Virus record (IMG/VR): IMGVR_UViG_2740892210_000013
Strand: one strand, 5' to 3'
Source of the DNA: a virus
Lineage: Duplodnaviria > Heunggongvirae > Uroviricota > Caudoviricetes
DNA: 37,133 bases
Shown: piece after piece, positions 6,089 through 34,900 of the stretch
Numbering within the stretch: position 1 is the stretch's first letter
Layout of the letters: each line of letters begins with the position of its first letter
Notes under the pieces: model-generated
The model's input: the letters and a program-made list of their open reading frames with translations, nothing else
The model's database searches: none
Told to the model about the DNA's origin: nothing
Position numbers and translations under genes: made by a program

Positions 6089-8911
6089 ATGACGGCAGAG
6101 TACATCAGGGACTGGCAACAACCGCGCCACGCAGTGGGACGTGAAGGAACGGGGATCCCCGTTCCTGAATCCGCGCTTTCCTCCTGGCTGGATGCCTACC
6201 GGGCAGAGAACGAGCGCCGCCAGGAAATGGCTGATGCGGCGTTCTCCGCCACGCCGCTGGGCAACCTGATTAATAAAAGCCTGGATGCACAGGAAAAACA
6301 GGACAAAACCATCACACTGGCAGGAGACGCCAGAAAACAGGTACGCGGTGCGGTGGATGAAGCCATGGCCTCGCTGCGCCTGCTGCCGTCCTATCTGCGC
6401 GATCCGCTTATTCGCCACCTCTCCTTCCTGCGCAAAAAACAGGAAGCCGATCGCCGGAAAGGCAAAAAGAGCTGGCAGGCTGAACGCTACGCGCGCGGAA
6501 CCCTGCGCAAAATATTCGAACGTCTGGACCGCACCGACCACCGCTGGCTGACACCGGGTTATCGCTCCCTTGCCGGACGCGAACGCCTGGATGATTTGCT
6601 TTACCTGCCGCAGCTCAACAAGCACCAGATACAGACGCTGGCCACCATGACGGCGGCGATGTTCAGCAGCACCTTCGAAAAACTCTGCGATGGCTTTGGC
6701 GCGACTGATGGCGAGCTGACCATGGATGTAACGCTGAAGGCGTATCAGATGCTGGCCCGCATGGCGTTACACCTGCACGCCATGCCTCCGCATTATGACG
6801 CACTGACAACAGACAAAGACCGGAGGAACGAACCGGACACGGAGCTGCTGCCGGGCGCAATCCTTCGCCTGACCTGTGCGGAATGGTGGAAACGCAAACT
6901 GTGGCTGTTACGTTGCGAGTGGCGGGAAGAACAACTCCGCGCCGCCTGTCTGGTTTCCAGAAAAACATCGCCCTATCTGAGCCAGGACGCGTTAAGCGAG
7001 TTTCGCGCACAGCGCGAGAAAACACGCGATTTCCTGAAAAGTTTCATGCTGGAAAACGAAGACGGGTTCACGATTGATCTCGAGACGGTGTATTACGCGG
7101 GAGTAAGTAACCCGGTTCACCGTAAGGCAGAAATGATGGCCACCATGAAGGGGCTGGAACTTCTGGCCGAAGCCCGTGGCGACAAAGCGGTGTTTCTGAC
7201 TGTCACCTGCCCGTCAAAATACCACGCCACAACAGAGAACGGTCATCCGAATCCCAAATGGAACGGGGCCACCATGCGCGACTCCAGCGATTACCTGGTT
7301 AACACGTTTTTTGCGGCGGTCCGCAAGAAACTGAACCGCGACGGCCTGCGCTGGTATGGCATCCGCACGGTGGAGCCTCACCATGACGGCACCGTGCACT
7401 GGCATATGATGGTCTTTGCTCATCCGGAAGAAATCGACACCATTGTGTCCCACACCCGCGATATTGCCATTCAGGAAGATCGTCACGAGCTGGGTGATGA
7501 TATTACCCCACGCTTTAAGGCGGAGTACGTCGACGGCTCAAAAGGCACACCGACCAGCTACATCGCCACCTACATCGGGAAAAACCTGGACAGCCGTGCC
7601 GTGGATGGCATCGACCCGAAAACGGGCAAGCCACGCGTTGACCACGAAACCGGAAAATCAATGGCCGAGAGCGTGGAACGCGCCATCGGCTGGGCGCGCC
7701 TTCACCGGGTCCGCCAGTTCCAGTTCTTTGGTATCCCCTCCCGTCAGGTGTGGCGTGAACTGCGCCGCCTTGCCAGCCAGATGGCTCGCAACCCGGAAGG
7801 ACCGCAACGGCTGAAGGATGACGCAATGGACGCGGTTCTTGCTGCCGCTGATGCCGGATGTTTTGCCACCTACATAGAGAAACAGGGCGGCGTACTTGTT
7901 CCACGCAAGGACTACCTGATTCGCACCGCCTACGACCTCGCCGATGAGCTGAACGATTACGGTGAACAGAGCGTACAGATTTACGGGATCTGGTCACCGC
8001 TCATCGGGGAGTCTTCCCGCGTATGCACGCATCCGGACAACTGGAAGCTGGTAAGACGCAAACCGGAAGCGGAAGACAGCGCCCGCGAAAATGGTTTTGA
8101 CCTTCAGGGCGGCCCTGCCGCACCTTGGACTCGTGGCAATAACTGTCCCCGTGTACAGGAAACGGACAACAACGGGACAGAACAGCCGGAAGAACGGCCA
8201 GCACCGTGGCCGCAGCTTCCTGACGGCGTTGACGTGAACGAATGGATGCGCTCACTGAAACGGCACGAACGCCGGGCGCTGATGCGTTCGCTGCGTGACA
8301 AACAGGCAAAAAACAGCAGTGATGAAATGCAGAGCTGGACACAGAGCCGCAAACAGCAGCGGCCTTTGCCTGATAACCACGAATTACTCGCTAAAGAATG
8401 GCGGGAATCTGCCGAATCTCTCGGCCTGCATATCGGTGAACAGCAGATGCAGCACCTGTTACGGGGCGGCAGCCTGTACGTTGACGGCAGCATCATTGCA
8501 CCGCAGGGATTTGAAATTGTACGCAAACCGGATACCCGCCCGGACAGCCGAATCACGCAGCTCTGGCAGCGCCTGAGCCGTAATCACGGCGTAAGCAGCA
8601 CGGAGATCCGCCATAACCCGGTCGCCAGCTATCTGGAACAGCTGGGGGCATCAGACCCCGAAGCCGCCGCACGTCTGGCATCCACACTTCAGCAGGACCA
8701 GAACACCATGAACCCCCCCGTTACCGTGCTTTCTGACATGCTGCGCGCCATCCGCGACGCAGAGCACGCACAGAGAATCAGTGAAACCACTGAACGTGCC
8801 CGCCGCAAAGCAGACCTGCTGCGGGGTGGCCTGACCAGTGGAAACAAAAAACAGACAGAAACGGGATTCACAAATCCCGTAAATGAGCAAAAAACGCGCC
8901 GCGATATATGA
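6089..8911 (+). CDS. A: P2 gpA-family replication initiation endonuclease (rolling-circle), 940 aa with a long C-terminal extension
   Basis: HWHMMVF (H-u-H-type) motif; large size and position after the early operon as in P2; longer than the P2 A size I recall. Confidence 0.8.
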   Translation: MTAEYIRDWQQPRHAVGREGTGIPVPESALSSWLDAYRAENERRQEMADAAFSATPLGNLINKSLDAQEKQDKTITLAGDARKQVRGAVDEAMASLRLLPSYLRDPLIRHLSFLRKKQEADRRKGKKSWQAERYARGTLRKIFERLDRTDHRWLTPGYRSLAGRERLDDLLYLPQLNKHQIQTLATMTAAMFSSTFEKLCDGFGATDGELTMDVTLKAYQMLARMALHLHAMPPHYDALTTDKDRRNEPDTELLPGAILRLTCAEWWKRKLWLLRCEWREEQLRAACLVSRKTSPYLSQDALSEFRAQREKTRDFLKSFMLENEDGFTIDLETVYYAGVSNPVHRKAEMMATMKGLELLAEARGDKAVFLTVTCPSKYHATTENGHPNPKWNGATMRDSSDYLVNTFFAAVRKKLNRDGLRWYGIRTVEPHHDGTVHWHMMVFAHPEEIDTIVSHTRDIAIQEDRHELGDDITPRFKAEYVDGSKGTPTSYIATYIGKNLDSRAVDGIDPKTGKPRVDHETGKSMAESVERAIGWARLHRVRQFQFFGIPSRQVWRELRRLASQMARNPEGPQRLKDDAMDAVLAAADAGCFATYIEKQGGVLVPRKDYLIRTAYDLADELNDYGEQSVQIYGIWSPLIGESSRVCTHPDNWKLVRRKPEAEDSARENGFDLQGGPAAPWTRGNNCPRVQETDNNGTEQPEERPAPWPQLPDGVDVNEWMRSLKRHERRALMRSLRDKQAKNSSDEMQSWTQSRKQQRPLPDNHELLAKEWRESAESLGLHIGEQQMQHLLRGGSLYVDGSIIAPQGFEIVRKPDTRPDSRITQLWQRLSRNHGVSSTEIRHNPVASYLEQLGASDPEAAARLASTLQQDQNTMNPPVTVLSDMLRAIRDAEHAQRISETTERARRKADLLRGGLTSGNKKQTETGFTNPVNEQKTRRDI

Positions 8912-8987: not shown

Positions 8988-9947
8988 ATGAAAATTTGTA
9001 TCGACGACGGCTCCACCAACATCAAGCTGGCATGGACTGAGAATGGCGAACGCCGCAACGCCATCAGCCCGAACAGCTTCAAGTCGGAATGGTCTGCGCC
9101 GTTCGGTGGCATGCAGCCCGCGAACTACATGCTTGATGGCGTGCGCTATGGTTTTGATCCGGTCAGCGATCGCTTTGTCCAGACGACCGACACGCAATAC
9201 CAGTACAGCGATGTGAATGTAATCGCCATTCATCACGCGCTGGTCAAATCAGGCATCACGCCACAGGAGGTGGATGTGGTTGTCACCCTGCCACTGAGCG
9301 AGTATTTCGACACAAACGCACAGCCGGACATGGCCAACATCAACCGCAAAAAAGCGAACGTTATGCGCCCGGTGGAGTACCAGAACGGCGAAGCATTCAC
9401 TATCCGTAACGTGCGGGTTATGCCTGAATCCATTCCGGCTGGCTTTAAAGCACTGGCTGACATGAGTCCGTTTGAATCCCTGCTGATTGTGGATTTAGGC
9501 GGAACCACGCTGGATGTGGCAAAGGTTCAGGGGCAACTGGCAGGTATCAGCCAGGTGTTTTGCGATCCACACGTAGGCGTCTCCCTGATGGCCGGTGCCG
9601 TGCTGTCGGTGATGGCCGCTAACGGTATGCGTACCAGTCACCACATCGCCAATACCATTATCGAACATCGCCATGATGAAGCCTGGTTGCGCCAACACAT
9701 CCACAATGACGCGCATTACGCCAGCCTGATGGCGGTTATTCGTGAAAAGGAAGAAACACTGAAACAACGCGTGATCCGCGCGCTGGCGGGTTTTTCGGGT
9801 TACGGGCGGGTGATGGTTGTCGGTGGCGGGGCGGAGATTGTGGCACCCGCTATCCGCGAAGCCTGCGGAGTTAATGCGACTTTCATCGCGGACGGGGTGC
9901 CACAGTTTGCTCTGGTTAATGGGCTGTACGCAATGGACAAGGAGTAA
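8988..9947 (+). CDS. parM: ParM/StbA-like actin-type segregation ATPase
   Basis: N-terminus MKICIDDGSTNIKLAW, ISPNSFK and QYSDVNVIAIHHALVKSG closely match what I recall of plasmid R1 ParM; 319 aa. Confidence 0.8.
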   Translation: MKICIDDGSTNIKLAWTENGERRNAISPNSFKSEWSAPFGGMQPANYMLDGVRYGFDPVSDRFVQTTDTQYQYSDVNVIAIHHALVKSGITPQEVDVVVTLPLSEYFDTNAQPDMANINRKKANVMRPVEYQNGEAFTIRNVRVMPESIPAGFKALADMSPFESLLIVDLGGTTLDVAKVQGQLAGISQVFCDPHVGVSLMAGAVLSVMAANGMRTSHHIANTIIEHRHDEAWLRQHIHNDAHYASLMAVIREKEETLKQRVIRALAGFSGYGRVMVVGGGAEIVAPAIREACGVNATFIADGVPQFALVNGLYAMDKE

Positions 9948-15335: not shown

Positions 15336-16388
15336 ATGAATCTGGTGATGTCAGATATTACCCGCAACAAGCTGGGTTGCTATATGGCGCAGCAGGCGTC
15401 GCTTAACAATATCCCGGTTTCCGCACTGGTATCGCGATTTACCGTGGAACCCGCGGTGCAGCAACGTTTTGAAAACGCCTCAAAGGAAAGTACCGAATTT
15501 ACGAAAAGAATTAACGTGATCGGCGTGACCGACCAGAAAGGCGAAAAAATCCTCCCGGACACCACCGGGCCAATTGCGCGCACGAATAGCAGTTATGACG
15601 GCATCAAACGCCGTAACCCGAATAACGTGATCGATATGAAGTCTCGTCAGTACCAGTGCGAACAGGTGAACTACGATACCTTTATTTCGTACCCACAGCT
15701 TGATACCTGGGCGGCCCACAGCGATTTTCAGTCCCGTATCAGTACACAGATCGCCCGGCAGGTAGCGCTTGATCGCATCATGATTGGCTTTAACGGCACA
15801 TCCCACGCCTACGAGTCTGATTTTCACACCAACAAGCTGCTTCAGGACGTAAACGTGGGCTGGCTGGAGCACATCAGAACCGATGCCAGCGAGCGCGTAA
15901 TGAATGACGTGACGCTGACCTCCCGCAACATGGACAACACTGTGGCGCACGCGGGTAAGTATGCGAATGCCGATGCTCTGGTACAGGATGCGCGCTCATC
16001 CCTGCTGGATGAATGGCACAAGGAAGCTGACGACCTCGTGGTGATTATGGGGCGCAACCTGTTTAACTCGCTGCGTCTGCCCGTGCTGAACAGCATCAGC
16101 GGCCAGAATCCCAATGCGGAATTACTTGCCGGGCAGCTCATCCTGTCATCGCGCACCATTGGCGGGCTGGGCGTGTTCCTTGCGCCGTTCTTCCCGGATG
16201 CAACGATGCTTATCACCTCGTTCAACAACCTGTCGATTTACTGGCAGAAAGGTTCAATGCGTCGCCTGATGAAAGACGAGCCGGAATACAACCGCATCGC
16301 CACCTACCAGTCCATCAATGACGCTTATGTCGTTGAAGACTATGGCAAGTGCGCGATGATCACTGGCCTGAAGTTCGCCGACAGCTAA
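15336..16388 (+). CDS. N: Major capsid protein gpN
   Basis: 350 aa; follows the scaffold gene; P2 N-like size and order. Confidence 0.85.
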   Translation: MNLVMSDITRNKLGCYMAQQASLNNIPVSALVSRFTVEPAVQQRFENASKESTEFTKRINVIGVTDQKGEKILPDTTGPIARTNSSYDGIKRRNPNNVIDMKSRQYQCEQVNYDTFISYPQLDTWAAHSDFQSRISTQIARQVALDRIMIGFNGTSHAYESDFHTNKLLQDVNVGWLEHIRTDASERVMNDVTLTSRNMDNTVAHAGKYANADALVQDARSSLLDEWHKEADDLVVIMGRNLFNSLRLPVLNSISGQNPNAELLAGQLILSSRTIGGLGVFLAPFFPDATMLITSFNNLSIYWQKGSMRRLMKDEPEYNRIATYQSINDAYVVEDYGKCAMITGLKFADS

Positions 16389-16433
16389 TCAACTCACGGC
16401 GGGCATCATGCCCGCCTGTAACGGAGAGAAAAA

Positions 16434-17234
16434 ATGATTACTCCTGCACAACAACACTGGCAGAACGTGATGGCACAGCGCGCAGGCCGGGCGAATGAAG
16501 GTGTGGACCACGCCGCGCGTACCGCGCATGAAGAGGTGCTGTATCGTCTGCGTCTGGCACAGGCCAGGCTAAAGGGCGTACAGGCCAGAAGCGCGAAAGC
16601 CGCCATCAAAAAAGAGTTGTTGCCGGACTTTTCCGGCTGGATTGAGGGAACGCTGGAGACTGACGGCGGGCAACAGGACGAAGTAATTGCCACGCTGATG
16701 GTGTGGGCGATTGACTGCGGCGATCTTCCGCTGGCGCTGCGTATTGGTGCATATGTGGTCCGTCACAACCTCATCATGCCGGATAACTTTGGCCGTACTG
16801 CTGCCACGGTACTGACCGAAGAAATCTGCAACCCGGTACTGACGCAGGCCGGGACGGATGCCGACGCGGATTTATCCGCCTTTATCGAACCACTGGACAC
16901 ACTTTGGGAAATTGTCGCCAACCAGGACATGCCGGACGAAGTGCGCGCCAAATTATGCAAGGCGTGTGCCTTTGCCCGTCGTGGCCTGACCGATGCAGAC
17001 AACATGGCCTCATCACTGAAGCTGCTGCGCGAAGCGATGCACCTGAACCCGAACGCAGGTGTGAAACGCGAGATTGCAACCCTTTCCCGCGCCCTGAAAA
17101 AAGCCGATTCCGCAGCCGCACCAGAAGACGCCAGCGCACAGCAGACGCAGGACGAAAGCAGCAAAAGTAAAAAGACAACGCAGAAGCCTGCAACACGAAA
17201 AACCACCGCGACGCAGAAAGCAAAGCGCGGTTAA
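16434..17234 (+). CDS. M: Terminase small/endonuclease subunit gpM
   Basis: 266 aa, basic Lys/Thr-rich C-terminal tail; P2 M position. Confidence 0.8.
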   Translation: MITPAQQHWQNVMAQRAGRANEGVDHAARTAHEEVLYRLRLAQARLKGVQARSAKAAIKKELLPDFSGWIEGTLETDGGQQDEVIATLMVWAIDCGDLPLALRIGAYVVRHNLIMPDNFGRTAATVLTEEICNPVLTQAGTDADADLSAFIEPLDTLWEIVANQDMPDEVRAKLCKACAFARRGLTDADNMASSLKLLREAMHLNPNAGVKREIATLSRALKKADSAAAPEDASAQQTQDESSKSKKTTQKPATRKTTATQKAKRG

Positions 17235-17326
17235 CGACTGACCCCGTCAGCGGGCGGCGTGCGCGGTGTTCCGGTTTGACTCCGTGACCGTTTACACCGC
17301 GCACCCACCGCCCGATTTTTTCAGGA

Positions 17327-17830
17327 GTGAACCCCATGAGTATGGTTGCCAGAACTAACCCCGGCCCCGCAGAGGACGACATCACCGACACCGATGATGG
17401 CGATACCCGTATTTCAGCGGGTGCATTCTGGCCGGATATTGTGCTGCGCGAGCTGCGTCTGGCGGTACGACTGCCGGGCCGCGTGACCACCTCCCGCCTG
17501 CTGCATACCGCCACCGGGGCCATAGCACACGTTACCCGCGAGCTGGAAGCATGGCAGCAGGAACAACAGGCGGCTGGCTATCAGACGCTGGCCGATGTTC
17601 CGGCCCCTGTAATTAACGGAGAAAGCGTCAATCTCTGGCACTGGCGCAATGCTGTTTATACCGCCACACGCGCCCTGATTCTGGAGCGTTACCGCGATGC
17701 GGACACAACGGACAAGGGCGACCGCCGGGCGGACGCACTGGATATACAGACATCGGATTTGTGGCGCGATGTGAGCTGGGCCATCTCTGACATTCTGGGA
17801 CGACCGCGAATGTTTGCGGAGCTGTGCTGA
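17327..17830 (+). CDS. L: Head completion/stabilisation protein gpL
   Basis: 167 aa; P2 L size and position. Confidence 0.8.
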   Translation: MNPMSMVARTNPGPAEDDITDTDDGDTRISAGAFWPDIVLRELRLAVRLPGRVTTSRLLHTATGAIAHVTRELEAWQQEQQAAGYQTLADVPAPVINGESVNLWHWRNAVYTATRALILERYRDADTTDKGDRRADALDIQTSDLWRDVSWAISDILGRPRMFAELC

Positions 17831-18030
17831 TGAAAGTGAAGGCACTGGAAGGCGACACCGTGGATTCGCTCTGTTTCCGGTACTACGGCACGACACAGGG
17901 CGTCACCGAAAAGGTGCTGGATGCCAACCCCGGACTCTGTCAGCAGGTATTTCTGGACGCCGGGCAGGAAGTGGAGATGCCGGAGCCGGAGAAGAAGAAA
18001 CGAGAAATGATTCAGTTGTGGGGGGAGTAG
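17824..18030 (+). CDS. X: Tail protein X (LysM-like)
   Basis: 68 aa; MKVKALEGDTVDSLCFRYYG... is typical of P2 gpX. Confidence 0.8.
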   Translation: MLMKVKALEGDTVDSLCFRYYGTTQGVTEKVLDANPGLCQQVFLDAGQEVEMPEPEKKKREMIQLWGE

Positions 18031-18032
18031 CA

Positions 18033-18356
18033 GTGAGCACCATTCAAACAGGGATCACAGAGCAGGTTATTGCGTGGCTCTTTGACCACCTGCCAACGGT
18101 GTATGCAGTAGGCGCGGCGGTCAGCATTTCCGCGCTGATGAGTCTTTATGACGGACGAACACTGGTTCAGACCGTAACGGGATCGCTGGCGTGCGGCGTT
18201 CTTGCCATGGCCGTGGCCGGGTCGCTGCGCTTCTTCGGGATCCCTGAGGATGCAGTGACGTTTTTTGGTGCCTCAATCGGTTTTATGGGCGCAGAGAAAG
18301 CACGCGACAAGGTTATTGCAATATTTGATCGCAGGGTGAAGGAGAGGAACGAATGA
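18033..18356 (+). CDS. Y: Putative holin (GTG start)
   Basis: GTG at 18033 preceded by GGGGGGAG RBS; hydrophobic segments AVGAAVSISALM and LACGVLAMAVAGSL; first gene of the lysis cassette. Confidence 0.55.
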   Translation: MSTIQTGITEQVIAWLFDHLPTVYAVGAAVSISALMSLYDGRTLVQTVTGSLACGVLAMAVAGSLRFFGIPEDAVTFFGASIGFMGAEKARDKVIAIFDRRVKERNE

Positions 18357-18745
18357 GCAACACATTTAAATTCAGCAGCCGGAGCGAAAAGAATTTGCAG
18401 GGTGTAAATCCTGATCTGGTGAAAGTGACCCGACGGGCGCTGGAAATCTCGGAAGTGGATTTTGGTATCACCGAAGGATTGCGCAGTCGTTATCGTCAGA
18501 AGCAGCTCGTGACCACAGGCAAGAGCCAGACCATGAACAGTCGCCATCTCACAGGGCATGCCGTGGATGTTGTGGCTTATGTCGGCAACCAGGTGTCATG
18601 GGAATGGCCGCTGTACGAAAAAATCGCAGCAGCATTCAGACAGGCCAGCCAGGAACTGAATATTCCGGTGGAATGGGGCGGCGACTGGAAGACCCTGAAA
18701 GACGGACCGCATTTTCAGTTACCACACGGAGCCTATCCGGCATGA
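18353..18745 (+). CDS. Endolysin, peptidase M15-like (zinc L-Ala-D-Glu / D-Ala-D-Ala peptidase type), not a P2-type lysozyme
   Basis: Motifs SRHLTGHAVDV (S-x-H-x-x-G-x-A-x-D) and DGPHFQL consistent with M15 zinc ligands; 130 aa; ATGA overlap with the holin stop. Confidence 0.7.
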   Translation: MSNTFKFSSRSEKNLQGVNPDLVKVTRRALEISEVDFGITEGLRSRYRQKQLVTTGKSQTMNSRHLTGHAVDVVAYVGNQVSWEWPLYEKIAAAFRQASQELNIPVEWGGDWKTLKDGPHFQLPHGAYPA

Positions 18746-19137
18746 AGCTCTGGCCCACGCTTGGCGTCGCTTTCCTTCTGATTACATCCATGCGTCTGTC
18801 GTGGTCGCTGGGCCGGGAGAACGCCAGAAACGAAGCGCAGGCCAGCACCCTGAAAAGTACCGTCGACACACTGAATATCATCAGCGCCGGGGTACAGGAT
18901 ATGCAGCAGGTGCTGGCTCAGCTCCGCGCGGAAAATCAGCAACGCAATCAGGACGGAGAGGTAAGACGTGAACAGCTACGCAACGATATTGCAAAAGATG
19001 AATGCGCCCACGCTTTGCCTGACGCTCGTTTTACTGACAGGTTGCGCAGGCACGCAGAACGCGCCAGGGCCAGCGCCGTCAGTCCGGCTTATACCGCAGA
19101 CGCTGACCATGCCGGTAACGCCTCCCCCCTTCCCTGA
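18742..19137 (+). CDS. lysB: Rz-like inner-membrane spanin (LysB equivalent)
   Basis: Internal ATG (MKLWPTLGVAFLLITSMRL...) overlapping the endolysin stop; N-terminal transmembrane helix then coiled-coil-like region. Confidence 0.6.
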   Translation: MKLWPTLGVAFLLITSMRLSWSLGRENARNEAQASTLKSTVDTLNIISAGVQDMQQVLAQLRAENQQRNQDGEVRREQLRNDIAKDECAHALPDARFTDRLRRHAERARASAVSPAYTADADHAGNASPLP

Positions 19138-19279
19138 CCCACCCACATGGGGAAACCTCGGAATATGGGGCGACCGCCTTCTGGATGCACTGGAAACCTG
19201 TAACGCGGATAAACGGGCCATTGCTGAACTGGATAAGAGAATAGCCGAACTGACACACCAGACGGGAGTAACACAATGA
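18998..19279 (+). CDS. lysC: Rz1-like outer-membrane lipoprotein spanin (LysC equivalent), embedded in the +1 frame of lysB
   Basis: MNAPTLCLTLVLLTGC lipobox; Pro-rich; overlaps the lysB 3' end. Confidence 0.5.
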   Translation: MNAPTLCLTLVLLTGCAGTQNAPGPAPSVRLIPQTLTMPVTPPPFPDPPTWGNLGIWGDRLLDALETCNADKRAIAELDKRIAELTHQTGVTQ

Positions 19280-21153
19280 CCAGTAAGAACTTTGCACTGA
19301 TTACAGCCATGACACAGGCTGAACTGACTCAAAAGGTGAATGAACATCTTGCGAAAGGGTGGCATCTTCAGGGGGAGACGCGGGTTGCCTACGAACCCGG
19401 CACCCCGTGGTATCTAATGCAGGCAATGGTGGCCGATGGCACTACAGACATCTCACCTGATTCCCCCCAGCACGGCAGCGTGCCGGAGTGGTATTACGTG
19501 GTGGTACTTGCTGGTCAATCCAATGCCATGTCATATGGTGAGGGAATGCCGCTGCCGGATTCTTACGATGCGCCCCACCCACGCATTAAGCAACTGGCCC
19601 GTCGCAACACAGTGACTCCCGGTGGTAAAGCATGCGCATTTAACGACATCATTCCGGCAGACCACTGCCTGCATGATGTTCAGGATATGAGCGCACTGAA
19701 TCACCCGAATGCAGACCTGAGCAAAGGGCAGTATGGCTGTGTCGGACAGGGCTTGCATATTGCCAAACGCCTGTTGCCTTACATTCCACAGAATGCCGGG
19801 ATTTTACTGGTTCCATGCTGTCGTGGTGGTTCGGCATTCACCCAGGGCGCGGAGGGGACATTCAGCGAGTCCACAGGAGCCAGTCAGGATTCGGCTCGCT
19901 GGGGTGTGGGTAAACCTTTATATCAGGACCTGATTTTGCGCACGAAGGCCGCATTGCAGAAAAACCCAAAAAACATGCTGCTGGCCGTATGCTGGATGCA
20001 GGGCGAATTTGACATGAGCGCCGCTACGTACTCACAGCAACCTCCGCTGTTTACGGCCATGCTGAAACAGTTTCGTGCGGACATTACCGAGTTTAACACG
20101 CAGTGTCATGGAGGCAGAGCGGCAAGTGTGCCATGGATTTGTGGTGACACGACGTATTACTGGAAAAACACCTACGGCACGCAGTACGACACCATTTACG
20201 GGGCGTACAAAAACAGGGAGAGCGACAACGTTTTCTTTGTGCCGTTCCTGACCGATGGTAGTGGCAACAATACCTCCACCAACGCACCAACGGAAGATCC
20301 GGATGCTGCAAGTGAGGGATATTACGGTTCGGCATCCCGAACGAACAAAAACTGGGTATCATCAAATCGCCAGACGCATTTCAGCTCATGGGCGCGTCGT
20401 GGCATTATTCCCGATCGTATGGCAACCGCTATTCTGAACGTAGCCGGTCGCACCTTAGCCTTCATCAGTGGTAAGGCACCGGAAATCAAACCCTCGCCCG
20501 GCGGCGACACGCCATCGGGGCCGTCTGAAGATGCATCCGTACGCACAATCTCCCTGTTGCCGACAGCCGGAGATGCTGCTGCGCAGGGCTGGAGCATTAA
20601 GAATGGCGGAATTCAGTTGTCAGAGGGTGTATTTAAGATCACCAAGCAGAGCAATAAAACCTGGTCCCTGACGCGCCCGGTGGATGACGCAGTCTCCCTG
20701 CTGACACGGGGTGGCAGACTGAGCTGTAAGTTTCGACTGTCAGGCGCACTGACCAACAATCAGTTCGGTCTGGGAATTTATCTGTATACCGATGTAGCGT
20801 TACCTGACGTCGTGGCGATGACCGGGACTGGTAACCCGTTCCTGATGTCGTTCTTCACCCAGACCACAGACGGCAAACTGAATCTGATGCATCACAAGAA
20901 AGCAGGAAACACAAAGTTGGGCGAGTTCGGGAATTACAGTAACGACTGGCAGACGCTGGAGCTGGTGTTCACCGCCGGCAGTGCCACGGTTACTCCGAAA
21001 CTGAATGGAGTGGCTGGCCCGGCATTCCAGGTCATAAAAGACAGTCTGACACTGGGGCTGAATGCGCTGACGTTAACTGATATCACTAAAAATGCCGCGT
21101 ACGGCGTCGATATCGGCAGCCTGGTGCTGGAAATCAATAATCCCGCAGCATAA
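19276..21153 (+). CDS. NanS-p-like sialate O-acetylesterase (N-terminal DUF1737-like, SGNH/SASA esterase core, C-terminal beta-rich carbohydrate-binding-like domain)
   Basis: VVVLAGQSNAMSYGEG (GQSN motif of the SASA/SGNH esterase family); N-terminus resembles prophage NanS-p proteins; 625 aa; ATGA-coupled to lysC. Confidence 0.65.
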   Translation: MTSKNFALITAMTQAELTQKVNEHLAKGWHLQGETRVAYEPGTPWYLMQAMVADGTTDISPDSPQHGSVPEWYYVVVLAGQSNAMSYGEGMPLPDSYDAPHPRIKQLARRNTVTPGGKACAFNDIIPADHCLHDVQDMSALNHPNADLSKGQYGCVGQGLHIAKRLLPYIPQNAGILLVPCCRGGSAFTQGAEGTFSESTGASQDSARWGVGKPLYQDLILRTKAALQKNPKNMLLAVCWMQGEFDMSAATYSQQPPLFTAMLKQFRADITEFNTQCHGGRAASVPWICGDTTYYWKNTYGTQYDTIYGAYKNRESDNVFFVPFLTDGSGNNTSTNAPTEDPDAASEGYYGSASRTNKNWVSSNRQTHFSSWARRGIIPDRMATAILNVAGRTLAFISGKAPEIKPSPGGDTPSGPSEDASVRTISLLPTAGDAAAQGWSIKNGGIQLSEGVFKITKQSNKTWSLTRPVDDAVSLLTRGGRLSCKFRLSGALTNNQFGLGIYLYTDVALPDVVAMTGTGNPFLMSFFTQTTDGKLNLMHHKKAGNTKLGEFGNYSNDWQTLELVFTAGSATVTPKLNGVAGPAFQVIKDSLTLGLNALTLTDITKNAAYGVDIGSLVLEINNPAA

Positions 21154-21176
21154 GGAAGAGCAGGAGAGCAAAACAG

Positions 21177-21644
21177 ATGCTTAAGACAAACAGTCTGCGA
21201 GAGTCCATGCTTCATGGGTGTCGGTGGTGCCAGGCTAATCCCGAGAAATTCACCATTTTCGTGGAGAGCGGCAACATTGAAACGACCGGAGAAGCGCCCT
21301 CGTTTGTTTACCGCTATCAGATGGTGATGTTTGTCATGGATTACGCCGGAGAGCTGGACGACCTCACGCTGCCGCTGCTGGCGTGGTTATCCGAAAATCA
21401 GCCACAGTTGTTGCTCAATCCGGAGCGTAATCAGGACATCAAATTTTCTGCCGTTATCAATGACGATGACAGCGCCGATCTCCTGTTTACGCTCCCCCTG
21501 CGGGAACGCGTTCGCATCACGCGCAACAGTCAGGGCACACCGCAGGCAGAACACCTGCCGGAGCCAAAACCCCGTCTGCCTTCTTCCGAAGGCGACTGGT
21601 CGCATGTATTCCAGGATGTGACGTGGGGTGAAAGCGATGGATAA
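21177..21644 (+). CDS. R: Tail completion protein gpR
   Basis: 155 aa; MLKTNSLR... and AWLSENQP resemble P2 R. Confidence 0.75.
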   Translation: MLKTNSLRESMLHGCRWCQANPEKFTIFVESGNIETTGEAPSFVYRYQMVMFVMDYAGELDDLTLPLLAWLSENQPQLLLNPERNQDIKFSAVINDDDSADLLFTLPLRERVRITRNSQGTPQAEHLPEPKPRLPSSEGDWSHVFQDVTWGESDG

Positions 21645-22272
21645 GGCATTCACCCGCGTGGATGAAACCTTTGAGGCTATCCGCGACAGCCTGAATCAGC
21701 AGGCCATCAATAACATCGCCAGAAAGCTGGCACAGGATTTACGTCGCGCCCAGCAGGCACGTATCCGGTCACAAAAAGCGCCGGACGGGACCGAATGGAC
21801 ACCACGCAGACGCCGCGTAACCCGGATACAGGAGCGCATTCGCTTTATCTGGAATAACGAAGCACGCACGCTGAAAAACTGGCATCACGACACAGGGAAA
21901 TACGGGCGAACCATTACCGGGTGGGATGAGGATAAAAACAATATCCGCACGTTTTACCGGGATGACATCGACCGTTTTCTGGAAATACGCACCCGGCGCA
22001 TCAACCAGGACAGCACAAAGCGCGTCCCCATGTTCGTAAAACTGCGCACCGCCCGCTACCTGAAAGCCCGTGCAGATGCCTCCGGTGTGACGGTGGGTTA
22101 CAGCGGCGTGGCCGCACGTATTGCACGCGTTCATCAGTTCGGTGAGCGCGATCAGGTTGCGCCGGGCATTTTCACCGATTACCCGGTACGTGAGCTGTTG
22201 GGTATCAGCCAGGCAGATGAGCGCCTGATTTATAACACGGTGCTGGGCCGGATTGCGGAGGCTGTACGGTGA
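21628..22272 (+). CDS. S: Tail completion/virion morphogenesis protein gpS (longer than P2 S)
   Basis: APDGTEW motif region resembles P2 S; overlaps the R 3' end. Confidence 0.65.
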   Translation: MKAMDKAFTRVDETFEAIRDSLNQQAINNIARKLAQDLRRAQQARIRSQKAPDGTEWTPRRRRVTRIQERIRFIWNNEARTLKNWHHDTGKYGRTITGWDEDKNNIRTFYRDDIDRFLEIRTRRINQDSTKRVPMFVKLRTARYLKARADASGVTVGYSGVAARIARVHQFGERDQVAPGIFTDYPVRELLGISQADERLIYNTVLGRIAEAVR

Positions 22273-27331: not shown

Positions 27332-27937
27332 CTATTTATACAATACAGCACCGCTCTTTTTAGTTATATATGTGCAGTTCGATGGTATATCTTTATTTAT
27401 AAAAGACATTGCACCTATTTTTACATTATCCCCAATTTTACGGGATAATCCAATGATGCAACAATTAGCTCCGATATCAACGTTGCTACCAATTTTTACT
27501 CTTGAACCAGGTATGTCACCATCTATCTGTCCAATGGTCGTATTCTGTCGTAACACCAGATTTTCACCAGCATCAACAGCAAAATGAACAACAATTCCAG
27601 CATGATGGGGAATTGTTAACCCTTTTCCAATATTTGCGCCCAATCCAATTTCGCAACCAAATTTGTTAATTATTTTACTGTTTAACTTCTTGGCTGCTTT
27701 CTTATGTAATTTATTACCATTAATATACATTTCGTTAGCCAACCGCCACCAGAAAAGGAAATTCCTGTTACGCTGCTTTTTCTCTCTTAAAAGCCTCCAG
27801 ATATCCATACGTTTCCGCCGAATTACTTCATGTTTCCAGAAGTTTTTTAAATTAGTAGAGTTCCCAAATAAAACAAAGTGAATTGCCATTAGGTAAGACA
27901 GCACGATAATCTCCTTAATTATTATTTCAGACCACAC
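27332..27937 (-). CDS. Hexapeptide-repeat (left-handed beta-helix) O-acetyltransferase, CysE/WcaB/NeuO-like; AT-rich cargo gene
   Basis: 201 aa; hexapeptide-like repeats GLGANIGKGLTIPHHAGIVV...IGSNVDIGANCCIIG...IGDNVKIGAMSFI; much lower GC than flanking phage genes. Confidence 0.7.
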   Translation of the reverse strand: MWSEIIIKEIIVLSYLMAIHFVLFGNSTNLKNFWKHEVIRRKRMDIWRLLREKKQRNRNFLFWWRLANEMYINGNKLHKKAAKKLNSKIINKFGCEIGLGANIGKGLTIPHHAGIVVHFAVDAGENLVLRQNTTIGQIDGDIPGSRVKIGSNVDIGANCCIIGLSRKIGDNVKIGAMSFINKDIPSNCTYITKKSGAVLYK

Positions 27938-33790: not shown

Positions 33791-34900
33791 ATGACCGACA
33801 CCACCATGCAATTGCTCAGTCAGGGCACAGACCCCGTAAAAATGCCGGATTTTGATATTCTCGCGGAGGGTAAAACGCTGTCAGGCGTGGCAGAGCGCCT
33901 GATGAGCCTGTCACTGACCGACAACCGGGGATTTGAGGCGGACCAGCTCACCATCACGCTGGATGATGCGGATGGTCAGTTGCAGCTACCGCCACGGGGC
34001 GCGCGCCTGACGGTTCTCATTGGCTGGAAGGGAGAACCGCTGACAGAAAAAGGCACTTACATTGTTGATGAAATCGCTCACGAAGGACCGCCGGACAGGC
34101 TGACTGTTTCAGCCAGAAGCGCAGATTTTCGGGATGAATTTAACGTTAAACATGAGGTGTCCTGGCATGATGTGACCGTTGAGCGTGTGGTATCCGCCAT
34201 CGCTCATCGGTATGGTCTGAAACCGCAAATCAGCGAAATGCTGATGGATATCGAAATCGACCACGCCGACCAGACCGAAGAAAGCGACATGTCCTTCCTT
34301 ACGCGCATGGCGGAAATGCTGGGCGCAATCACCACGGTAAAAAGCGGCAATCTGTTATTCATCATGCCAGGTGGTGGCGTGAACGCACAGGGCCAGCCGT
34401 TGCCCTCGTTCGCCATTACACGCAGCAGCGGCGATCGCCATCAGTTCCGCATTGCTGACCGCGAGGCGTATACGGGGGTACGCGCCTACTGGCTTGATCT
34501 TAATTACGGGAAAAAGAAAAAAGTCAGCGTGAAACGCCGTAAACCGCCAAAACCCAAAAAGGAGAAAAGCAGCAGCCGTGAAGGTGATTATATGGAAGGC
34601 GCGGAAGGCAATGTGTTTGTGTTACGCAAGACTTATCAGAACGAGCAGGCAGCAAGACGCGCAGCGGCGGCAAAGTGGCAGCAACTACAACGCGGAGCCG
34701 CATCATTCTCCATCACGCTGGCGCGTGGACGTGCAGAACTCTACCCCGAAATGCATGGCACGGTAACAGGATTTAAAAGCGAGATTGATAATCAGGACTG
34801 GATTATTGCAAAAGCCGAGCACACCATTGATAACAGCGGCTTTACCACGCAGCTTGAGCTTGAGGCAAAAATCCCGGAATGGATAGCGGAAACAGAGTGA
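33791..34900 (+). CDS. D: Tail protein gpD
   Basis: Start MTDTTMQLLS... with GGGAGG RBS; the ORF track starts 132 nt earlier; size and position before ogr fit P2 D. Confidence 0.8.
   Translation: MTDTTMQLLSQGTDPVKMPDFDILAEGKTLSGVAERLMSLSLTDNRGFEADQLTITLDDADGQLQLPPRGARLTVLIGWKGEPLTEKGTYIVDEIAHEGPPDRLTVSARSADFRDEFNVKHEVSWHDVTVERVVSAIAHRYGLKPQISEMLMDIEIDHADQTEESDMSFLTRMAEMLGAITTVKSGNLLFIMPGGGVNAQGQPLPSFAITRSSGDRHQFRIADREAYTGVRAYWLDLNYGKKKKVSVKRRKPPKPKKEKSSSREGDYMEGAEGNVFVLRKTYQNEQAARRAAAAKWQQLQRGAASFSITLARGRAELYPEMHGTVTGFKSEIDNQDWIIAKAEHTIDNSGFTTQLELEAKIPEWIAETE

Follow-up and report, generated by a model that had tools for sequence, protein, structure and literature searches.

A NanS-p-type sialate O-acetylesterase gene recurs in the late operon of P2-family prophages and carries a phage-type-specific N-terminal domain that may act as a capsid adaptor

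We analyzed a 37,133-nucleotide stretch of DNA from a virus of the Caudoviricetes (IMG/VR record IMGVR_UViG_2740892210_000013; hereafter, the window), focusing on nanS-p, a gene of its late operon that lies between the spanin gene lysC and the tail completion gene R. Judging from its sequence, the product is almost certainly a member of the NanS-p family and should be a functional sialate O-acetylesterase. It is very likely to be produced along with the other late proteins and to leave the cell by means of the neighboring lysis cassette, and we put the chances at about even that it is tethered to the P2-type capsid through a lineage-specific N-terminal domain, DUF1737. Tethering is proposed because of three observations: the mosaic structure of the protein, the diversity of its N-terminal adaptors and the association of the gene with a diverged patch of the capsid gene. 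The gene and its parts are as follows:

19276..21153, + strand: nanS-p, an uninterrupted ATG-to-stop open reading frame of 625 aa; prophage sialate O-acetylesterase
19285..19434, + strand: DUF1737 N-terminal domain of a P2-specific subtype, candidate capsid-binding adaptor (aa 4-53)
19438..19482, + strand: linker 1, probably flexible (aa 55-69, GTTDISPDSPQHGSV; low confidence)
19480..20439, + strand: NanS/SASA SGNH-type esterase core (aa 69-388, with Ser82 of GQSN and His368)
20470..20538, + strand: linker 2, rich in Pro, Ser and Gly (aa 399-421; pLDDT <50)
20542..21141, + strand: C-terminal lectin-like jelly-roll domain, DUF6645 (aa 423-622)

The original prediction, made from the sequence alone, had described a 625-aa esterase with a GQSN-bearing SGNH/SASA core and a NanS-p-like N-terminus, and had proposed a domain search as a check. 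The open reading frame was recovered exactly, and the Pfam search returned both expected domains together with a third: DUF1737 (PF08410) at aa 4-53 (E = 1.1e-6, 28.8 bits against a gathering cut-off of 24), SASA (PF03629) at aa 75-271 (E = 2e-11) and DUF6645 (PF20350) at aa 476-586 (E = 2.1e-19), the latter two also above their gathering scores. In PHROG, phrog_143 spans the product end to end (1069 bits), while a PDB search matched aa 69-388 to Escherichia coli NanS/YjhS (3PT5, E = 1.7e-125) and aa 430-622 to the C-terminal domain of NanS-p from phage phi24B (6YP6, E = 1.6e-29). Matches of this kind in Pfam, PHROG and the PDB, over a frame of 625 aa, rule out a chance open reading frame. The esterase core shares about 57-70% identity with the crystallized E. 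coli NanS, and both Ser82, within the GQSN motif at aa 80-83, and His368, within THFSS, are unchanged across 25 homologs; this serine and histidine reportedly have catalytic roles. The traits that place the protein in the NanS-p family were thus all found, namely DUF1737, an SASA/SGNH core, a DUF6645 domain and a late-region site beside lysis genes. By eye, no Sec-type hydrophobic core was seen in the N-terminus of the product (MTSKNFALITAMTQAELTQK). In E. coli EC958, the nanS-p DNA is identical to the window copy, and its product (WP_000202148.1) has the PGAP label 'DUF6645 domain-containing protein'.

An AlphaFold2 model built with 25 homologs contained three folded modules, with low-confidence linkers (pLDDT <50) at aa 56-68 and 399-421 between them. 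The modeled core resembles 3pt5 (Foldseek E = 5e-28, TMt 0.75) and the modeled C-terminal domain resembles 6yp6 (TMt 0.85, rmsd 2.1 Å), the next Foldseek matches of the latter being legume-type lectins and the sialic-acid-binding domain of Vibrio cholerae sialidase. For the N-terminal domain, the model has a beta-alpha-beta-beta topology (strand 4-11, helix 14-26, strands 30-38 and 46-54; pLDDT about 80-87), and this predicted fold of one helix and three strands with a trailing linker fits the preprint description of the capsid-binding DUF1737 of phi24B gp84. Modeled in isolation, the domain resembles DUF1737 proteins of many viruses in BFVD (TM 0.7-0.86). A profile search of the PDB for DUF1737 gave no match, and Foldseek of the N-terminal domain against the PDB gave nothing significant (best match dodecin, E = 0.15), the phi24B capsid structure lying outside the set searched in both cases. 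The loop between the second and third strands, YEPGTPW (with Y39 and W45, then Y46), sits where gp84 has its Tyr42 anchor loop; in the form EPGxP[WF]Y it is kept in all P2-type copies, and it has no residue-for-residue alignment with STAGYGAEF of phi24B. In a by-eye comparison, the S-P motifs of linker 1 resemble SISSP, a putative processing motif of gp84.

Within the late operon, nanS-p is flanked by the lysis genes on one side and by tail completion genes on the other:

18033..18356, + strand: holin (PF05106; EC958 annotation of the ortholog)
18353..18745, + strand: M15 endolysin (PF13539; phrog_465)
18742..19137, + strand: LysB, Rz-like spanin (DUF2570; phrog_214; EC958 annotation)
19019..19279, + strand: LysC, Rz1-like spanin, the stop of which overlaps the nanS-p ATG (PF23793)
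21177..21644, + strand: gpR tail completion protein (PF06891, E = 1.4e-38)
21637..22272, + strand: gpS tail completion/virion morphogenesis protein (PF05069)

As first noted in the original prediction, the nanS-p ATG overlaps the lysC stop. The stop is TGA and the overlap reads ATGA (sequence context ACACAATGACCAGT / CAATGACC). A Shine-Dalgarno GGGAG stands 7 nt upstream of the start, and 23 nt separate the stop from the gpR ATG. Between lysC and R, we found no terminator-like site on the + strand, and the number of promoter-like sites was not above chance (two, compared with 2.9±1.9 expected from shuffles). The start/stop overlap, together with the lack of a terminator-like site on this strand and of any above-chance promoter, argues that the gene is embedded in the late operon, with which we infer that it is co-transcribed. 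An autonomous moron with its own promoter and terminator was rejected on the same grounds and because the GC content of nanS-p (0.54-0.56) is like that of its flanks. The earlier description of the gene as 'fused' into the late operon holds in the sense that it is translationally coupled there through the start/stop overlap, but nanS-p is a separate gene and not part of a protein fusion.

Across a survey set of 5,426 complete E. coli genomes, the whole lysC-nanS-p-R arrangement was present in 373 (about 7%), which rules out a rare or unique insertion. In many ST131 genomes, including EC958 and JJ1887, the 2.8 kb around nanS-p is 100% identical. DNA of the P2-type nanS-p N-terminus was found in 376 E. 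coli genomes at 383 places (367 with at least 99% identity and 9 with 90-95%), and lysC lay beside it in 36 of 40 sampled rows, the other four listing the esterase gene only. An ortholog with 91% aa identity to the window protein is present in E. coli O104:H4 (L013, 4001-5881), and O104:H4 strain C227-11 has three nanS-p places according to megablast. That P2-type phages pass directly from lysC to R, as had been claimed, was borne out by about 686 E. coli genomes in which the junction lacks nanS-p and by phage P88 (NC_026014), where the junction is empty and lysC overlaps the start of R. Pairwise alignment with P88, combined with sliding identity against three empty-site prophages, gave the limits of the exchanged DNA:

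~19224..21215, + strand: DNA replaced in comparison with P88-like phages that have the empty site (final ~55 nt of lysC, nanS-p, the 23-nt spacer and initial ~40 nt of R)

The module therefore brought along an end of lysC and a beginning of R of its own, a sign that it was exchanged between P2-like phages rather than inserted naked.

To trace recurrence among P2-like phages, we used first the N-terminal domain and then the whole protein as queries in sensitive searches, and inspected the gene context of the matches. At 11 P2-like loci from E. coli and Salmonella, with about eight N-terminal variants, nanS-p comes immediately behind the spanin genes and precedes R (loci including L013 from O104:H4, L014, L015, L016, L017, L018 from Salmonella enterica, L019, L020, L021 and L024). 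At least eight diverged P2-like lineages have NanS-p at the lysC-R position; their endolysin is of either the M15 or the lysozyme type, and the capsid proteins of the other lineages are only 61-62% identical to that of the window. Of the four lineages with a downstream gene on the contig, three (L019, L020 and L021) have a small DUF1378 gene next after nanS-p. The same gene follows nanS-p in Stx phages and in a Mu-like prophage, is absent from the window and L024, and seems to travel with the esterase gene (coordinates: L019, 11036-11200; L020, 11105-11257; L021, 11046-11213; L005, 5073-5252; L022, 11235-11417).

The yield of these searches depended on the method. A scan of genome contigs with the whole protein returned lambdoid-type or chromosomal relatives only, and a word-indexed protein search with the 72-aa N-terminus returned fragments only; a full HMMER scan with the N-terminus gave 11 matches at E<1e-3 and led to L014. 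Among phage records with a NanS-p homolog, 3 of 353 are P2-like. The three closest phage records (ON470599, or L001; ON470623; and PV468777, or L002) and contigs L014-L018 end inside the esterase core, probably due to assembly breaks at a core repeat common to co-resident (lambdoid) prophages, and phage records that end there are probably labeled as partial or mis-bounded. We found no paper in the searchable literature that pairs DUF1737 or sialate esterases with P2-like phages.

Comparison with lambdoid copies revealed a mosaic. DNA similarity to lambdoid nanS-p (about 85%) begins at 19482 (aa 70) and stops exactly at the stop codon. At the protein level, the window copy is 37% identical to that of lambdoid JLK-2012 over DUF1737, 86% over the core and 88% over the C-terminus, whereas the corresponding values against other P2-type copies are 47-58%, 67-70% and 37-43%. 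The window-type DUF1737 is 22-43% identical to lambdoid copies, compared with 47-67% among P2-type copies. All P2-context copies have in common the motif L[IV]TAxT…GW…[EA]PGxP[WF]YLMQ, and the lambdoid copies KHYDVVRAASPSDL…KEGWQP. When the P2-type N-terminus was searched against 50,697 phage records with tblastn, it was 100% identical to sequence in three P2-like records and no more than about 36% identical to anything lambdoid; it occurred in none of about 350 lambdoid phage records with NanS-p and in 3/3 of the P2-like records. The O104:H4 ortholog is identical to the window protein at aa 1-143 and 480-625 and diverged in the core, so that recombination with other copies affects the core whereas the ends remain linked to the phage backbone, a pattern that points to gene conversion of the core.

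The same prophages also differ from empty-site relatives in part of the capsid gene:

15336..16388, + strand: major capsid protein, P2-family gpN homolog and candidate binding partner (7JW1 gpN, E = 3.3e-81)
15600..15999, + strand: diverged patch of the capsid gene, distal E-loop and spine-helix region (aa ~85-164)

Over roughly 10 kb of late genes, the window is 95-100% identical to three independent empty-site prophages, except in the capsid patch (83-86%), the NanS-p module and a mild dip at 18200-18600. The window-type allele of the patch was present, at 99% identity or more, in 376 genomes at 383 places, counts that equal those of the NanS-p N-terminus, while the P88-type allele was found in 737 genomes at 827 places, mostly with 95-100% identity. 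A control segment in gpL, between the patch and nanS-p, was found in 1,049 genomes at 1,171 places as a 90-100% continuum common to this group and empty-site prophages. Based on an alignment of three occupied and four empty prophages, 45 differences were fixed between the two classes in 15600-15999, 12 in 18400-18599 and 49 in bins on either side of the NanS-p module (18800-19279 and 20200-21599), the last mostly at the lysC end and the R start. By comparison, 16000-18399 contained only four fixed differences and 28 shared polymorphisms, and identical L, X and holin proteins were found in the occupied and empty classes. These shared polymorphisms and identical proteins show that recombination mixed the interval while the pairing of the capsid patch with NanS-p persisted. 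Separately, the differences at 18400-18599 form a third island within the M15 endolysin gene (18353-18745), and the roughly 400 bp between it and the NanS-p module have almost none.

At the protein level, 11 capsid residues are fixed between the classes (occupied to empty: S85T, I90T, I99V, M101L, S103N, Q105K, T124A, S129P, Y159D, D162N and H164S). At position 90, all NanS-p(+) capsids examined have I or V, compared with T in P88-type capsids and in P2 gpN, and at position 159, all of them have Y, I or L, compared with D or E in NanS-p(-) P2-family capsids. Mapped on P2 gpN (7JW1; PMC7552001), the patch falls on the distal E-loop and spine helix at the outer surface. A location at the hexon center or in the sir loop of the A-domain (183-224) was rejected based on the gpN domain boundaries given in the same study.

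In the mechanism we propose, a three-domain esterase would be made in the cytoplasm, with no obvious signal peptide, from a gene transcribed and translationally coupled with the late head, lysis and tail-completion operon, and so only after induction. Exit from the cell would be through the holin-endolysin-spanin lysis encoded directly upstream. Once outside, the core (Ser82, His368) would strip O-acetyl groups from 9-O-acetylated sialic acids, both as free sugars and on mucin glycans, with assistance from the C-terminal lectin-like domain. DUF1737 would be a phage-type-specific adaptor that holds the enzyme on the exterior of the P2-type capsid, as in phi24B gp84, and the flexible linkers would permit display and perhaps later proteolytic release. 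Published work on related proteins bears on several of these steps. NanS-p proteins from EDL933 and O104:H4 prophages are active on Neu5,9Ac2, remove O-acetyl groups from the sialic acids of mucin and sustain growth on Neu5,9Ac2, and in response to norfloxacin, nanS-p ranks with the most highly induced late genes (PMC8065619, PMC5923452). The P2-borne O104:H4 ortholog (91% identical) may have been one of the five nanS-p alleles tested in Saile et al. (2018), with its P2 setting passing unremarked. In phi24B, gp84 is an abundant virion protein whose DUF1737 forms a hexamer on capsid hexons and which is trimmed after release (bioRxiv 10.64898/2026.04.10.717836, preprint). The idea in the original prediction that the enzyme acts with the virion or at lysis agrees with this preprint and with our own results.

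Several points weigh against display on the capsid. For the window copy, both esterase activity and virion association are predictions. Its DUF1737 is only 22-37% identical to lambdoid versions, and Tyr42 of phi24B lacks an alignable counterpart, the aromatics of YEPGTPW being different ones. Binding by the phi24B domain is confined to flat, centrally placed hexons of a capsid with T=9, while capsids of the P2 type have T=7 (PMC7552001), and the co-varying patch is in the E-loop and spine helix rather than at the hexon center or in the sir loop (aa 183-224) that is bound by Sid and Psu. The capsid patch and nanS-p are only 3.3 kb apart, their association is one of equal counts rather than a per-genome cross-tabulation, and the genome sample is clonally biased, with many ST131 members and few independent contrasts. 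Phage P88, the capsid protein of which is 94% identical, is viable without nanS-p, so any capsid role would be accessory. Lastly, the phi24B capsid result comes from an unreviewed preprint (bioRxiv 10.64898/2026.04.10.717836).

A broader proposal, which we advance tentatively and rate at somewhat below an even chance, is that NanS-p represents modular virion cargo: a single esterase-plus-lectin cassette found among unrelated temperate phages and mounted via interchangeable N-terminal adaptors, with the P2-type adaptor having co-evolved with the capsid surface patch, in which positions 90 and 159 are hydrophobic. The proposed adaptors would comprise the lambdoid-type DUF1737, the P2-type DUF1737, a Mu-like module and a tail-fiber N-terminus. 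In Mu-like prophage L022 (9001-11070), the esterase and DUF6645 stand behind a module of ~105 aa that is not DUF1737, at the end of the tail-fiber/invertase region, and in protein P0202 (917 aa), the esterase cassette stands behind the prophage tail-fiber N-terminal domain PF08400. Proteins P0228, P0177 and P0136, like L022, have the esterase plus DUF6645 behind other N-terminal modules. A further protein, P0117 (752 aa), combines the esterase cassette with a tail-collar domain and could be an assembly artifact.

The strongest competing explanation, which we take seriously at a little short of even odds, is that nanS-p is a moron that benefits the lysogen as a 'public good', with no role in the virion. 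Esterase from the fraction of lysogens that lyse would free Neu5Ac from O-acetylated mucin sialic acids for surviving kin, DUF1737 would have another role such as oligomerization or solubility, and N-terminal specificity and the capsid link would be by-products of breakpoints and linkage. Such a function is experimentally backed for lambdoid NanS-p, with growth on Neu5,9Ac2 depending on nanS-p copy number, and P88 manages without the gene. The core also recombines among co-resident prophages, as in the O104:H4 allele with its unchanged ends and diverged core, and a breakpoint inside the conserved core automatically leaves the 5' end with the backbone. However, this explanation gives no account of why a lambdoid-type N-terminus is found in none of about eight P2-like lineages even though whole-module exchange occurs, as indicated by the DUF1378 gene that travels along. 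Nor does it account for the other N-terminal modules in the Mu-like prophage and the tail-fiber fusion, or for a capsid patch that stayed paired with nanS-p across 28 shared polymorphisms, and the phi24B protein is physically on the capsid.

We consider it improbable that the product is instead a virion-borne entry enzyme, which would deacetylate a bacterial surface polysaccharide (O-acetylated K1-type polysialic acid, O-antigen or colanic acid) and expose a receptor in the manner of tailspike deacetylases. This possibility was raised in a review (PMC8065619), a putative O-acetyltransferase moron in the same prophage (27332-27937) could in principle acetylate a surface polymer, and P0202 joins the esterase to a tail-fiber N-terminal domain. 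Yet the core is 57-70% identical to NanS, which acts on 9-O-acetyl sialic acid, whether free or bound to glycans, most of the host lineages in question (ST131, O104:H4 and O26) are not K1, a capsid mount is poorer than a tail mount for receptor processing, and P88-type phages infect without nanS-p. An inactive passenger decaying in a defective prophage is scarcely credible: many prophage accessory genes do decay and gpD of the EC958 prophage is annotated as truncated, but the nanS-p reading frame is intact with all three domains and invariant catalytic residues, the sequence is 100% conserved across many genomes of different lineages, gpD and other late genes of the window are intact, and the close relatives vB_EcoM-569R5 and vB_EcoM-705R2 were recovered as induced particles.

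The remainder of the window is that of a complete P2-family prophage of the P88 group (Xuanwuvirus) adjoining serS. Its late genes follow the order gpO, capsid, M, L, X, holin, M15 endolysin, LysB, LysC, NanS-p, R, S, V, W, J, I and tail-fiber genes, the portal and terminase genes are on the minus strand, and gpD is intact. Other features outside the NanS-p region are as follows:

1-1008, - strand: integrase
6089-8911: GPA replication protein
8988-9947, + strand: ParM-type actin-like segregation protein (PF06406/PF21523)
27332-27937, - strand: 201-aa open reading frame with a GC content of about 0.38-0.42, between a tail-fiber assembly gene and gpU
33791-34897: gpD, 98.9% identical to that of P88

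In the EC958 copy of the prophage (L003, 36443-37296), the annotation splits gpD into a 266-aa protein and a pseudogene fragment, compared with 366 aa in P88, and this copy may be tail-defective. We rejected a defect of the window prophage through truncated gpD, as the truncation is confined to the EC958 annotation and the window is distinct from EC958. The ParM-type gene is followed in EC958 by a partition/stability gene, and its presence in an integrated prophage may hint at an option for plasmid-like maintenance. The product of 27332-27937 is a hexapeptide-repeat O-acetyltransferase similar to EpsC, CysE and WcaB ('serine acetyltransferase' in PGAP), and its gene stands in the place of the invertible tail-fiber segment and invertase of EC958 and P88. 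A functional link between an O-acetyltransferase moron and an O-acetylesterase in one prophage is speculative.

NanS-p has so far been studied as a trait of enterohemorrhagic E. coli (EHEC) and Stx phages. Here the gene sits in a P2-family prophage that about 7% of complete E. coli genomes contain, among them those of pandemic ST131 and of the lineage behind the O104:H4 outbreak, so the capacity to deacetylate mucin sialic acids is more widely phage-borne than one would gather from the searchable literature. A practical consequence is that assemblies and deposited phage genomes often break inside nanS-p because its core is repeated among prophages. More generally, DUF1737 may be a portable capsid adaptor with a specificity that can be read from sequence. 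If display on the capsid is true, the ST131/O104:H4 prophage would yield myovirus particles bearing a mucin-sialate O-acetylesterase at a site unlike the hexon center of phi24B, and the protein would be the first enzymatic decoration protein on the long-studied P2 capsid. It would also extend the concept of 'phage adherence to mucus' to temperate coliphages of major pathogens, and would be a natural scaffold with which to mount cargo on P2-type capsids.

Finally, we compared the window protein to known systems. Lambdoid and Stx-phage NanS-p proteins (933W z1466/L0105; phi24B gp84, also vb_24B_21; and those of JLK-2012, 434 and YYZ-2008, the last as 'yjhS') have the same three-domain architecture. 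The core and C-terminus of the window protein are 86-88% identical to the JLK-2012 type, while overall identity to the 933W/phi24B type is about 48-50%. Both groups are encoded in a late operon beside a lysis cassette, lack a signal peptide and exist as multiple recombining copies per genome. They differ in position, with lambdoid nanS-p between Q/stx and holin S and window nanS-p after the spanins and before R in a P2-family myovirus, and the window copy further differs in having a distinct DUF1737 subtype (22-43% identity) and no DUF1378 gene downstream. Chromosomal E. coli NanS (YjhS, 3PT5) has a homologous SGNH/SASA core, the GQSN serine and C-terminal histidine of which are kept in the window protein. 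It is a single-domain protein encoded in the nanCMS operon, whereas the window protein has additional N- and C-terminal domains and is encoded in a prophage late operon. Chromosomal NanS is exported.

With phi24B gp84, the window protein has in common the N-terminal domain family, the predicted fold, an S-P linker after residue ~55 and enzyme cargo behind it. In phi24B, a T=9 podovirus, the DUF1737 hexamer plugs flat facet-center hexons through Tyr42, whereas the window prophage would have a P2-type T=7 capsid and a different anchor loop, and binding is only proposed. A precedent for an accessory, non-essential protein on the outside of gpN hexamers is provided by Psu (and Sid) of phage P4 on P2 gpN capsids (PMC7552001). 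Psu is an all-helical dimer that bridges the hexamer via the sir loop (gpN 183-224), is satellite-encoded, carries no enzymatic cargo and is unrelated to the window protein in sequence and fold. The NanS-p family and its biochemistry had been described before, and hundreds of genomes have the gene annotated; what appears to be new is its recurrent placement in P2-family phages, the phage-type-specific adaptor domain and the co-varying capsid patch.

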